Below are positions 52,797 through 62,348 of a stretch of DNA of 64,000 nucleotides, in pieces (position 1 is the first letter of the stretch; the number at the start of each line of letters is the position of its first letter). The notes below the pieces were generated by a model. It saw only the letters and a list, made by a program, of their open reading frames with translations, was not told the DNA's origin and did not search any database. Source of the DNA: a phage. A program made the position numbers and the translations under genes. The stretch lies in sequence record PZ402300.1, one strand, 5' to 3'.

Positions 52797-53839
52797 CTTA
52801 GCAATGTCAGACAGAATCTGATTGTACTGACGACGCAGGTCATTACCGTAGTTAGGATGGCATCTAAAACCATTAGTTAAACGAGTCGTTAGCTCGCCCT
52901 TACCTTCCATGATTAACATGGAAGCCATACGTAGCATCTGCTTCTTTACGAGCAAGCATTGCCTCCTCAAGTGTGTCATACGTACCCAGACCGATCTGTT
53001 TACGATTGACTGTGATGTGTGCCTGGAATCTACCAGAAGGTAATATTCTTACACCATTCACTTTGCTTGATGTATTACGTGATAAACCCATATTCATCTG
53101 GTTCTGTCTACTGGTTACATTTCTCAGATTAGACCAACGGTTGTCGTTTCTAATGTGATTGATGTGATCCACCTGGTTAGGTGTTTCCCCTGTTTCCATT
53201 ATCCAGATTATTCGATGCAGTAAGTACTCTTTACGACCCAGACTAACAGATAAATAGCCTTCTTTGTGAGGATACCCCACAATTGTTCCGGCTAATCCAC
53301 TAGCAGAGTCGTAACGATGAGTTACTAGCCCACTTTCTCTGTCATACCGTAAAACCTTCTTCAAAGATTCTTGGGTAATAGTATCCAAGTCTTTTATCAG
53401 GTTCTTACAGGTAGGACATAGGTGGCCTATTGGACTCTTTTTAGCATCATAGAAGTTGCAAACAAACTCACTAGAGCATTGCTTACAACTACAGATAGCT
53501 GTGTACTTACCAGTTTTACGTAATATTTGGGAGTTATCTAACATATGGATTCCTTAGTAATTTTGCATACAATTTCAGATTGTATCCTAACCAAGGAAGT
53601 AAGTCTCCAGTTTTCACTGGAGTATCGGACTATATCATCACCCACTAATCAGTGGGGCAAGGCGCTTGGGTGGTCACTTGACTCACCTACTCTACTCACA
53701 TACGAAATGTTTTCGATAGTCTCTGAACCTTCCCTCATGGAGGGCTTGGCTGCTGATTGGCATATCCATAGGACTTAGCTTTCCAGCAATTCACCTTGTT
53801 TTCGACACGGATTACTCCGTGAAGGATCATTTATGTTTA
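52797..53839 (-). mobile_element. Group I intron 2 (approximate boundaries) carrying an HNH-AP2 homing endonuclease gene
   Basis: Minus-strand core elements AAUUGCUGGAAAGC (P-like), AAUCAGCAGCC (Q-like), GGUUCAGAGACUAUCG (R-like, 53714-53729) and GAUGAUAUAGUCCGAUAC (S-like, 53622-53639); begins with UAA directly after the exon-2 …VHD codon; P1 not identified, 3' end could be 52899 instead. Confidence 0.55.
52900..53544 (-). CDS. HNH homing endonuclease with C-terminal AP2-type DNA-binding domain (intron 2-encoded)
   Basis: 214 aa; HNH motif VDHINHIRNDNRWSNLRNV; AP2-like region VNGVRILPSGRFQAHITVNRKQIGLGTYDTLEEA. Confidence 0.7.
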   Translation of the reverse strand: MLDNSQILRKTGKYTAICSCKQCSSEFVCNFYDAKKSPIGHLCPTCKNLIKDLDTITQESLKKVLRYDRESGLVTHRYDSASGLAGTIVGYPHKEGYLSVSLGRKEYLLHRIIWIMETGETPNQVDHINHIRNDNRWSNLRNVTSRQNQMNMGLSRNTSSKVNGVRILPSGRFQAHITVNRKQIGLGTYDTLEEAMLARKEADATYGFHVNHGR

Positions 53840-54446
53840 ATCATGTACAGTCATTACAGGGAATGGCTTCTTAGGTAAAGTATTGAGCATAGTCAGGATT
53901 ACATCTGTATCAACCAATGCAATGGTTTCTGAGTCCAGATAATCAAAGATACGGGTAGACAGAAAGCCTGATTTCTCATAGCTAGCCCACAGTGTATTAA
54001 CCGTTTCATGACTAGCACCAGGGACAACTATGTATTCACCAGTTCCTTCACAGAGGGACTTAATATAGTTCACCTGGTTCACGTTGAAGTTACAACGACG
54101 CAGCATCTCACGTACCACCATCCCATCAATAGAGTGAGTGATGTTAGCAGAGAGCATACGGGTCTTCTCTTCAGTACCCTGAACCATACGAGTGATGTCG
54201 AATGGCTTACCTAAGAAGTTAACAGTCTGTACTTCAGGAACCATGACCTTAATGACAGCATGGAAGTTGTCAGGAAGTACCCATACGTAACGGTTAGCAT
54301 CAGGATTACCACATTGCAGTAAGAACTTGTTAAGTGCCCAAGGACCACTAGCAACAGTTTCCATTACATTCTCAAAAGTCTTGAGACGAATACCTTCACC
54401 GAATACTTCTTTAGGCTTGGCTTCTGAGCCGTAGAATGCAGTCATA
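53840..54446 (-). CDS. RNAP II large subunit, exon 2 (motif B second half through motif C region)
   Basis: Track ORF 53837..54445 (MTAFYGSEAK…VMTVHD); TAFYGS aligns to T7 RNAP TLAYGS (Y639); TLWASYEKSG aligns to T7 TVVWAHEKYG. Confidence 0.7.
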
Positions 54447-56701: not shown

Positions 56702-56754
56702 CGCTTATTCTCCTAAATGTGATTAATAACCGAAAGCTGCGGAGCAGCTATTAC

Positions 56755-60391: not shown

Positions 60392-60520
60392 TTTGTACTC
60401 TCCAGATTTATGTGATTTACGGGTGAACTCGTCGGTGAGAACACCCAAACAAAGGGATAAAAGTTCAATGATTAGTGGATGCATTTACATCATCCATAAG
60501 ACGCGGAGCGTCGTTGCCTT

Positions 60521-60746: not shown

Positions 60747-61001
60747 TTAATTGGTTGAAATGTATCCGTAAGCTGTGGAACAGCTTAGCTCTTCCTTATC
60801 TGGCTCTCCTTCACAGGATTCCCACTGCCATACATAACCAGTTAGTGGAAGGGTTTCTCCCTCCACAAAGTAGGGTTCACCATCTTTAATTTTTAAATCG
60901 GAATCTCTTGTAAGAGTGATTTCTCCATCCATCAATTCTCCTACGATAATTGTTCCAACAGGGACATCAGCAGAGCCTTCGATACAACGGAATTTGGTCA
61001 T
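60747..61001 (-). CDS. Hypothetical small acidic protein
   Basis: 84 aa ORF. Confidence 0.4.
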   Translation of the reverse strand: MTKFRCIEGSADVPVGTIIVGELMDGEITLTRDSDLKIKDGEPYFVEGETLPLTGYVWQWESCEGEPDKEELSCSTAYGYISTN

Positions 61002-61017
61002 GATTTTCTATCCTTAA

Positions 61018-61035
61018 AGTAGATAGTTATCTACT
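61018..61035. promoter_or_regulatory. 8-2-8 inverted repeat AGTAGATA-GT-TATCTACT (candidate operator) upstream of gene 60747..61001
   Basis: Perfect 8-bp arms; adjacent TTATCTATCTA repeat; 17-34 nt upstream of start codon. Confidence 0.4.
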
Positions 61036-61054
61036 TTTGATTATCTATCTAATG

Positions 61055-61083
61055 TTCAAAACAGGAGACTCCGAAGAGCCTCC
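61055..61083 (-). terminator. Hairpin terminator (UUCG loop, weak U tract)
   Basis: Minus strand GGAGGCUC-UUCG-GAGUCUCC followed by UGUUUUG. Confidence 0.45.
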
Positions 61084-61091
61084 TAGGTGAC

Positions 61092-61415
61092 TTAGTCTTT
61101 AGTCAGGATGTCAATTACTTTGGAATATTCTGCGTTATAGATACGAGCGTTCTCTGAATCCTTGCAGAATTCCTCAATACTTTTCTTACGCAGAGTCTCA
61201 GTCATAGCTGTTTCCTCTGCCAGTTTATTAACAAAGGTATGCATTTCTAATTTAGTACGAATGGCTTGTTTCTCTGCCATCGTACTTACATATGAATTAA
61301 GCATACCTACTGCTTTAGTTGCTGTACTGAATGTATCTGCAACAGTAGTAGCAGCTGAGTTAACAGTACCAAGTAAAGTTCCTGCGGTCATACGTACAGT
61401 AGCTTGAGTAGTCAT
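61092..61415 (-). CDS. Hypothetical small protein (Thr/Ala-rich N-terminus)
   Basis: Track ORF 61092..61604; start reset to ATG 61415 (MTTQATV) with GGAG RBS; upstream part of track ORF spans the G11 tract and is likely non-coding. Confidence 0.4.
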   Translation of the reverse strand: MTTQATVRMTAGTLLGTVNSAATTVADTFSTATKAVGMLNSYVSTMAEKQAIRTKLEMHTFVNKLAEETAMTETLRKKSIEEFCKDSENARIYNAEYSKVIDILTKD

Positions 61416-61497
61416 GATGATAGCTCCAATAGTTGATGATAGGACGACATGTCCATAACATGCGGAGCATGTGTAACGTGTAAGGTGGGGTAGGGTA

Positions 61498-61565
61498 GTG
61501 GCTACACCGTCAACATACCGGGGGGGGGGGCTAGCTGAGTGTAAGGGTGTAGCCCCAGCCACACC
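61498..61565. repeat. Imperfect inverted repeat enclosing an 11-G homopolymer (61520-61530) in a G-rich intergenic region
   Basis: GCTACACC (61501-61508) pairs with GGTGTAGC (61546-61553); upstream GGTGGGGTAGGGTAGTGG. Confidence 0.45.
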
Positions 61566-61597
61566 ACTGTAGTCATACCTACATAATGAATATTTAG

Positions 61598-61625
61598 TAT
61601 GCAAAAAATTATGAGGTAACTATCT
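61598..61625. promoter_or_regulatory. Repeat copy 1: TATGCAAAAAATTATGAGGTAACTATCT
   Basis: Near-duplicate of motif at 61665; contains CTATCT element shared with the 61018 inverted repeat. Confidence 0.4.
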
Positions 61626-61664
61626 GCATAAGGTTGTAGCCATACATAACTATGCTACTTTTCA

Positions 61665-61688
61665 TATGCAAAAATATGATAGCTATCT
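61665..61688. promoter_or_regulatory. Repeat copy 2: TATGCAAAAATATGATAGCTATCT
   Basis: Direct repeat of 61598 motif ~67 bp away. Confidence 0.4.
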
Positions 61689-62014
61689 TACTTATAAGCA
61701 GTTAAATAGGAGGGAGCATATACCAGGTGAGGGGTTCGTAGTTCACTCGTAATACCAAAAGTAAGAGTGTACTTATCTGTATTCACATGCCATGGTGAGT
61801 ACATGGAAGAAGGCCATGGTAGTTCCTTTCCTGGTTCCTGTAAGAATACTCTTACTTCTATTCCCAGTAACAAGGCTAACCCTTTTACTTCATGAAATGT
61901 TTGTTCATCCGGTACTAGTATAATAGTAGTAAGTCTATCTGGTATAAGGTTTTGTAAGGTTGTATGGATGGTGGGATTAGGCCCACCAGCATAACCTATC
62001 TTAGTAAGTTTCAT
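61688..62014 (-). CDS. Paralog-family small early protein A
   Basis: 108 aa; motif TIILVPDEQTFHEVKGLALLLG shared with five neighbouring ORFs. Confidence 0.5.
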   Translation of the reverse strand: MKLTKIGYAGGPNPTIHTTLQNLIPDRLTTIILVPDEQTFHEVKGLALLLGIEVRVFLQEPGKELPWPSSMYSPWHVNTDKYTLTFGITSELRTPHLVYAPSYLTAYK

Positions 62015-62348
62015 GGGATATAATCCTTACTCTCTTAAAATCTTTATTAGGTCTGCTATCTATAGTAAGTCCAACAAACCCTTCTTCTATCCTTGGTTCA
62101 AAGAACAAGAATGCAGATTCACCAGCAGGTATCTTTATGGATTCTCCTGGGTTGAGAATGGTTAACTTAGCTGGACTATTGAGAAGAAGGATGGAACCAC
62201 GGGTACTATCTGCTAACTCTCCTGATAGCATAACCATATGACAGTCTTGCGGTAGTAACCATTCAATAGCTTTAGTAATGTTCTCGGAGTAAACAGAGAC
62301 TTCATCCTTATACTGATGGAGATACAGTACTCTATTCATAAGGCACAC
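62001..62348 (-). CDS. Paralog-family small early protein B (divergent)
   Basis: 115 aa; MVMLSGELADSTRGSILLLN…LTILNPGE matches family pattern. Confidence 0.45.
   Translation of the reverse strand: MCLMNRVLYLHQYKDEVSVYSENITKAIEWLLPQDCHMVMLSGELADSTRGSILLLNSPAKLTILNPGESIKIPAGESAFLFFEPRIEEGFVGLTIDSRPNKDFKRVRIISHETY

Follow-up and report, generated by a model that had tools for sequence, protein, structure and literature searches.

A long homopolymer near the left genome end of an N4-like phage as the candidate core of a conserved terminus-associated module

We found an eleven-base homopolymer at a distance of about 33-43 nt from the left genome end of an N4-like phage, and tracts of the same type recur at a matching position in distantly related members of the family. 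Our leading reading, which we hold tentatively and with slightly less than even confidence, is that this tract may form the core of a conserved cis module that would create the unique left terminus of the genome. Read on the coding strand, the proposed module would consist, in order, of the motif YAGKRTW, about 30 bp of (T)ACAC-rich sequence, a run of at least seven C followed by GG, a spacer of about 25 bp, the block CCC-N-CCCC and the hairpin of the early promoter P1. How one exact and one ragged end come to be made in N4-like genomes has been a question since the 1980s, and the comparison offers a candidate cis element for it. A second long-standing question is how a linear end about 100 bp from P1 becomes competent for supercoil-dependent extrusion. 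The candidate element itself (YAGKRTW and, after about 30 bp, a run of at least seven C with GG behind it) is short and mutable and is found in phages of Escherichia, Klebsiella, Achromobacter, Stenotrophomonas and Pseudomonas. It can be used as a marker of the true left end in permuted Schitoviridae assemblies, and it exposes small ORFs annotated over the tract as spurious; since the homopolymer count at this site is polymorphic and error-prone, reported lengths should be read with caution. Unusually long homopolymers have been remarked upon in N4-like phages, where they were left without explanation (Fouts 2013, PMC3670811). A literature search of incomplete coverage returned no function, terminal position or family-wide conservation described for the terminal homopolymer. 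The N4 left-end sequence and the direct terminal repeats (DTRs) of N4-like phages were already known; the window adds a C11 allele of this known kind of element, and the family-wide comparative pattern is a useful lead.

The initial annotation of the window (the whole stretch of DNA that was analysed, 64,000 bases) had drawn attention to a run of eleven G at 61520-61530 on the plus strand, preceded by G-rich sequence and placed in the loop of an inverted repeat. The sequence bears this out. The G-rich stretch GGTGGGGTAGGGTAGTGG is found at 61485-61502, and the repeat, one base longer than had been claimed, is 9 bp (GGCTACACC at 61500-61508 and GGTGTAGCC at 61546-61554) with a 37-nt loop that holds the tract. 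Since the genes near the tract are all on the minus strand, it reads C11 in the coding orientation. It is the sole homopolymer of eight or more bases in the window, where the next-longest G/C runs are three C6 and the A/T runs reach at most 7, and about 0.002 runs of G11 would be expected from independent base composition. An arm of 9 bp around the tract was attained in 0.4% of flank shuffles. The features of the region are collected in Table 1.

Table 1. Features around the homopolymer and their coordinates in the window
Feature	Position	Strand	Basis or remark
gp1 homologue, 107 aa, first early gene	61092..61415	-	PHROG 5020; DTR boundary inside gene
Predicted direct terminal repeat, ~406 bp	61157..61562	-	Mimir124 DTR, IME11 termini, record ends
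Virion RNA polymerase promoter P1 hairpin	61459..61471	-	N4 homology and pattern match; predicted +1 at G61454
Conserved C-rich block CCTACCCCACC	61484..61494	-	followed by TTACAC-G-TTACAC, 61483-61471
Distal repeat arm, GGTGTAGCC on minus strand	61500..61508	-	variable in relatives
C11 homopolymer (G11 on plus strand)	61520..61530	-	homologous tracts C6-C13
Terminus-proximal repeat arm, GGCTACACC on minus strand	61546..61554	-	holds first TACAC unit; part of near-invariant block GGGGCTACACC
CAGTGGT, window form of YAGKRTW, just outside left terminus	61563..61569	-	IME11, N4 and St11Ph5 ends

Searches with megablast and blastn identified the window as a Gamaleyavirus of the G7C/N4-like type (Schitoviridae, subfamily Enquatrovirinae). 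The blastn matches to N4-type phages span 61400-61625, and many GenBank records begin or end inside the window, several of them at the two predicted DTR boundary positions. Phages of the N4 type have a unique left end, variable right ends and a DTR of roughly 400 bp (PMC3896407, PMC4496689). Block-by-block alignment with nt 1-156 of N4 shows that the left-end sequence is homologous, and the termini of relatives map to 61559-61563 in the window; those of N4, IME11, phiAxp-3 and LUZ7 are experimental, and that of St11Ph5 is a record start only. Specifically, nt 1 of the N4 record (NC_008720) corresponds to 61560 and nt 1 of the St11Ph5 record to 61559. The high-frequency read starts of IME11 begin with GTGGCTGGGGCTACACC, with minor starts one base to either side (PMC3896407, Table 3); this start corresponds to 61562, and the other IME11 end, 401 bp away, corresponds to 61157. 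In addition, the annotated DTR of Mimir124 (403 bp) maps to 61157-61562. By homology, we therefore place the left terminus of the window phage at about 61562, with a presumed cleavage between 61563 and 61562 (±3 nt), and the DTR would be present as a single collapsed copy in a circularly permuted assembly. Since the termini of the relatives fall at 61559-61563, the flagged interval 61498-61565 corresponds, on this alignment, to the outermost ~60 bp at the left of the mature genome, inside the DTR. The DTR length stays near 400 bp across many unrelated lineages (401-416 bp for IME11, Mimir124, Axy11, Axy24 and phiAxp-3), with Pokken (627 bp) and LUZ7 (660 bp) as exceptions. At the right boundary of the DTR (~61157 in the window), no motif common to the lineages compared was found, and it may be that the right cut is placed at a measured distance from the left-end module.

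The left ends of distant N4-like phages, in which the gp1 homologues lie at record nt 116-190, have the same architecture in unrelated primary sequence. A C7 tract followed by GG (C8 in Axy24) starts at nt 31 in Axy11, nt 34 in phiAxp-3 and nt 31 in Axy24, all from Achromobacter, at nt 31 in Pokken from Stenotrophomonas and at nt 29 in LUZ7 from Pseudomonas; the ends were fixed by run-off sequencing for phiAxp-3 and, according to the record note, for LUZ7, and by PhageTerm for Pokken. Further uncultivated lineages also have the tract at the matching position relative to YAGKRTW, and in the permuted record of Pseudomonas phage inbricus the tract precedes gp1, and the cut-site motif lies 32 nt ahead of the tract. 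The flanks are alike as well, with (T)ACAC repeats before the tract and, about 25 nt after it, CCC-N-CCCC and then the GCTCCGC hairpin. When the sequences were aligned on the tract, YAGKRTW, a motif defined post hoc with a chance frequency of about 0.1% per position, was found 30-33 nt upstream in 14 of 17 lineages (for example CAGTGTT, CAGTATT and TAGTGTA; CAGTGGT at 61569-61563 in the window). The mapped termini fall at the 3' edge of this motif within ±3 nt. The distance from the tract to the P1 hairpin varies more, with gaps of about 40-65 nt between GG and the hairpin, and since the tract length ranges from 6 to 13, the spacing of its distal edge is not critical. Conservation extends past the mature end on the concatemer side, as seen both in YAGKRTW and in the comparison of the window with the right-end flank of N4, and the cut is thus flanked on both sides by conserved sequence at fixed spacing, as would be expected for a pac- or cos-type sequence. 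Erwinia phage Frozen, with its tract at nt 57, is off this pattern, and no tract was found at the record start of Vibrio VCO139. Judged from these alignments, the module is conserved across much of the Schitoviridae, though it is not universal; its location, homology, conservation, spacing and length polymorphism are established by the comparison.

Coliphage N4 is the closest point of reference. Its left-end sequence has been public since 1988, and its left terminus and direct terminal repeat were reportedly described by Ohmori, Haynes and Rothman-Denes in that year. The order at the N4 left end (NC_008720) is TGGTGGGGCTACACCCCTTACACCATAAGCA-C9-...GTGTAGCC...CCTACCCCACC...P1, with the C9 tract at nt 32-40 and TGTCTTTACTAGTGTAGCC directly after it. 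Common to the window and N4 are GGGGCTACACC, TTACAC, a poly-C tract, GTGTAGCC, CCTACCCCACC, the P1 hairpin, a ribosome-binding site, gp1 and a DTR of about 400 bp. They differ in the tract (C11 in the window, C9 in N4), in the repeat arms (9 and 8 bp) and in the two bases after the tract (GG and TG). In addition, the N4 ends were determined experimentally, whereas the window is a collapsed circular assembly with ends placed by homology.

In the mechanism that we propose, the terminase, possibly together with the portal, would read the module and cut the DNA at a unique, sequence-specific left-end site, some three helical turns away from the tract. [quoted passage not shown] The module would then be a termination-type signal with a logic like that of lambda cosQ beside cosN; both its part in forming the terminus and the packaging order are inferred. 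In lambda, cosQ is required for the terminal cut (PMC4669245). It is a short conserved element that sits a few tens of bp inward from the last-packaged chromosome end. The tract would have equal geometry, provided that packaging of the N4-like genome finishes at its left end; however, it has no sequence similarity to cosQ, and lambda has cohesive ends whereas N4-like phages have terminal repeats. The fixed spacing, the two-sided conservation and the asymmetry between a precise left and a ragged right end argue for a terminus-linked rather than a gp1-linked function, and the conservation outside the mature end fits a cleavage signal, not a purely end-binding element. The tract also has no alternative account, as it is not coding, has no Rfam match and is not a terminator. 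Rfam covariance models gave no match at E ≤ 1 in 61300-61800, with gathering-threshold matches elsewhere in the window, and the tRNA search came back empty at this site. We also rejected GCTGGGGC / TGGTGGGG as a Chi-like sequence, since only 5-6 of 8 positions match and the orientation is wrong for RecBCD entry at the left end.

The concatemer junction of T7 and T3 offers a second comparison; there, the terminal repeat is accompanied by pac sites and by short repeats in arrays (SRL/SRR). Like the phage studied here, these are DTR phages with a T7-like RNA polymerase and short motifs near the repeat boundary, to which the (T)ACAC units are comparable. However, their motifs are unrelated to those found here, and to our knowledge T7 has no such homopolymer. 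The processing of T7 involves pausing of RNA polymerase at the junction, a step that is not known from N4.

The early promoters of N4 are DNA hairpins with a stem of 5-7 bp and a 3-nt loop, and conservation extends from -17 to +1 (PMC4496689). In N4 these hairpins read GTTGC-TTC-GCAAC-TTATGGA before gp1 (hairpin nt 91-103) and GAAGC-TCC-GCTTC-TTTTGGA before gp2. The P1 element of the window has the features of a virion RNA polymerase (vRNAP) promoter, namely a 5-7 bp stem, a 3-nt loop whose central base on the template strand is a purine, a GC-rich heptamer and a +1 eleven nt from the loop centre; it reads CATGC-TCC-GCATG on the non-template strand, and its template-strand loop is GGA. In the 64 kb, exact matches to the pattern GCTYCGCNNNYTWTGGA, which was derived from the N4 hairpins, are confined to 61452-61468 and 60493-60509, and a hairpin with two mismatches to it was found at 56729-56745. 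Compensatory stem changes occur in the P1 of relatives (CATGC/GCATG versus GTTGC/GCAAC), and the promoter stems within the window differ yet are complementary (CATGC/GCATG, GACGC/GCGTC and AGCTGC/GCAGCT). A P2 hairpin, GACGC-TCC-GCGTC-TTATGGA, lies at 60493-60513 on the minus strand upstream of the gp2 homologue, and a weaker P3-like hairpin, AGCTGC-TCC-GCAGCT-TTCGGT, is at 56729-56751 on the same strand. The flagged inverted repeat was rejected as a promoter hairpin of this kind. It resembles the N4 promoters P1-P3 in being a DNA inverted repeat at the injected end; however, those have a stem of 5-7 bp and a 3-nt GGA/GAA loop, whereas here a stem of 9 bp encloses 37 nt of loop and the GC-TYC-GC heptamer is missing, and the true hairpin is 49 nt downstream of the tract.

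The main rival explanation, which we consider unlikely, is that the tract, CCC-N-CCCC, the ACAC repeats and the inverted repeat serve the leading end during early infection as a non-B structure (G-quadruplex, i-motif or cruciform) or as a protein site. [quoted passage not shown] That the left end is injected first and that a linear genome needs topological constraint for hairpin extrusion (PMC4496689) would agree with such a role, and the G-rich strand is the template strand. The structural results are divided. A non-canonical G-quadruplex pattern (GGGG-N1-3-GGG-N24-29-G7 or longer) was found on the template strand in 7 of the 10 lineages tested; this pattern needs one loop of 24-29 nt, and G7 is the minimum that yields two G3 runs. 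However, the extended pattern is missing in N4, LUZ7 and Frozen, and a canonical G-quadruplex (four runs of at least G3 with loops of 1-7 nt) was found neither in the window nor in 9 relatives. Inverted repeats that bracket the tract exceed those in shuffles in the window (p = 0.004), N4 (p = 0.01), G7C (p = 0.04) and Axy11 (p = 0.03), with p = 0.07 in LUZ7, and they recur with unrelated arms in LUZ7, Axy11 and the left end L078; no bracketing repeat was found in Pokken or Frozen. Among close relatives, the distal arm reads GGTGTAGCC, CGTGTAGCC, CCTGTAGCC, GGGTGTAC (G7C) or CATGTATGAC (KP8) while the proximal arm is fixed, and there is therefore no covariation to back this particular hairpin. 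The inverted repeat was thus rejected as the conserved feature, since its distal arm decays uncompensated in close relatives and two lineages are without it, and we keep it as a secondary feature.

Folding of either strand as single-stranded DNA, whether or not the bases past the terminus were included, gave z values of -0.9 to -2.1, with only P1 robust and predicted as a hairpin in every fold. A stable stand-alone structure was rejected as the main explanation because the fold energies were not clearly better than those of shuffles. In addition, conservation beyond the mature end would be superfluous for a structure at the end, and the spacing to P1 is more variable than the spacing to the terminus. 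The data on the module also agree with a role for the leading DNA end early in infection. The two ideas may also be joined: an ancient, cosQ-like C7+-GG stop signal of a DTR phage, three helical turns inside the cut site and common to most Schitoviridae, could be combined with a G-rich template module (G7 or longer plus GGG-N-GGGG) that helps to open or anchor the first-injected DNA and so lets the vRNAP use P1 on the linear end, with expansions of the tract (C9, C11, C13) tolerated or serving for tuning. We regard this combination as possible, though rather doubtful.

The tract had been suspected of varying in length, and comparison among relatives shows that it does. The comparison set comprised 44 distinct left ends homologous to that of the window, drawn from GenBank phages, IMG/VR and metagenome contigs by a pattern that called for GGGCTACACC, six or more C, and CCTACCCCACC; when IMG/VR was scanned with an exact 20-mer, just three known isolates came up, and gapped patterns found more. 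As CCTACCCCACC served as an anchor of the collection, its invariance there is by selection. Independent support for the C-rich block comes from CCC-N-CCCC, which phages of Achromobacter, Stenotrophomonas and Pseudomonas carry at the corresponding position. Among the 44 sequences, the tract was C7 in 31, C9 in seven and C11 in two (the window and Klebsiella phage K57alpha1.2), and C6, C8, C10 and C13 were found once each. C7 is the modal and ancestral length, and expansion appears to be tolerated; the C11 of the window is probably a slippage-expanded allele, with a miscount less likely.

It is quite improbable, in our judgement, that the functional tract is about C7 and that the other four C are a sequencing or assembly miscount or the product of neutral slippage without consequence. 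The predominance of C7 and the scatter of lengths 8-13 over different backgrounds would agree with this, as would the errors that homopolymers cause on several platforms, including 454 frameshifts in N4-like phages (PMC3670811). However, the independent phage K57alpha1.2 also has C11, C9 and C10 occur in Illumina metagenome assemblies, and C9 is present in the Sanger-era N4 sequence. Longer alleles thus exist, and the objection touches the length only and not the identity of the element. The tract lengths are mostly odd, with C7, C9, C11 and C13 against one each of C6, C8 and C10, and single-base slippage would make C8 commoner than C9, contrary to the counts; phylogenetic non-independence may explain part of this excess. 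Small CDSs annotated as 'hypothetical protein' span the poly-C in nithesis (L020, 503-595), Bas96 (L025, 496-594) and Mimir124 (L001, 204-314), and they are probably spurious, since the tract differs in length among relatives and precedes P1.

A role in replication or concatemer formation, in which the terminal repeat and the G/C tract would provide fold-back (hairpin) priming or strand invasion between the terminal repeats, is in our view very unlikely. The terminal 13 nt, GTGGCTGGGGCTA, are able to pair with TAGCCCC and AGCCAC in the window. However, the pairing with TAGCCCC is not conserved, since relatives have CCATCCCC, the 9-bp repeat would leave the 3' end unpaired, and the fold energies are unremarkable. 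The conserved motif outside the end would also be left unexplained.

The initial annotation had taken 61415 as the true gene start and the ORF 61092..61604, which runs through the tract, as doubtful. The gp1 profile supports both points, as PHROG 5020 (106 positions) spans residues 2-107 of the short form and covers no part of the 63-residue N-terminal extension of the longer, spurious ORF. The ATG at 61415 has GGAG 8 nt upstream and is the conserved start of the N4 gp1 homologue, with 66% identity to N4 gp1; gp1 of N4 is annotated at the equivalent position, and the equivalent gene of St11Ph5 is annotated 'gp1'. In addition, the 2- and 4-nt tract differences in relatives would shift the frame of the longer ORF.

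In contrast, the same annotation had placed the tract in the 5' leader of gp1 and had suggested that it could tune expression of the small gene, and neither proposal is supported. P1 is downstream of the tract, with its predicted +1 at ~61454, and the tract is at -66 to -76 relative to this +1, outside the -17..+1 promoter region. Because the +1 is downstream and the DNA end is only ~33 nt away, the left-end copy of the tract is outside the gp1 early transcript, and only the right-end copy or concatemers could give rise to RNA that includes the tract. With bacterial phase-variable loci the tract shares a G/C homopolymer with natural length polymorphism among isolates (C6-C13). Unlike those contingency loci, it lies neither in a real ORF nor among promoter elements, its presence and position are conserved across a virus family, and the left-end copy has no plausible expression read-out. 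A scan for intrinsic terminators (GC-rich hairpin and T run) found none on either strand in 60900-62100, and a sigma-70 scan gave a single weak promoter-like site at 61705-61676, fewer than in shuffles. Although the length polymorphism is real and, with no terminator detected in 61563-61687, read-through in the right-end DTR copy or in concatemers could put the tract in RNA upstream of gp1, a slippage-driven phase-variable switch or rheostat for gp1 is extremely unlikely: the tract is outside the region needed by the vRNAP, the nearby DNA end leaves the left copy no room for a promoter upstream of the tract, the presence of the tract and its C7 minimum across subfamilies keep their distance from the terminus and not from gp1, and turning an essential early cofactor ON or OFF would be of little use to a lytic phage with a single burst cycle.

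Several further features were observed around the left end. Just past the gp1 stop, a conserved hairpin at 61064-61083 reads GGAGGCTC-TTCG-GAGTCTCC and then TGTTTTG on the minus strand, and its N4 counterpart is GGAGGCTCCTCGGAGTCTCCTTTT. This hairpin is probably the terminator of the early transcript, and the generic terminator scan missed it because its T run is short. In phage PD205 (L033), a 26-bp insertion (ACACATGCTTGACTCACTTCGTTCGTCAGCGATGCTCCGCATG) splits the P1 hairpin region upstream of gp1 and leaves the distal hairpin intact; a duplication or an artefact of assembly may account for it. Immediately beyond the left terminus, a 125-bp spacer contains two copies of TTTTTGCATA, at 61598-61607 and 61665-61674 (minus strand), which are the only copies on that strand in 64 kb. 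They are retained in relatives with compensatory flanks (CATAT...ATATG versus GGTAT...ATACC), and the N4 counterpart is ATAATTTTTTC. With just two copies on the strand in 64 kb, TTTTTGCATA in 61563-61687 was rejected as a middle promoter of general use; a promoter of another kind or a further part of the packaging signal could be present here. Elsewhere in the window, two adjacent tRNA genes lie at 25092-25247 on the minus strand, one of them tRNA-Ile(AAU) and the other with an atypical anticodon loop (ARAGORN), and a group I intron is present at 53605-53848 on the minus strand (Rfam RF00028, 92.8 bits).
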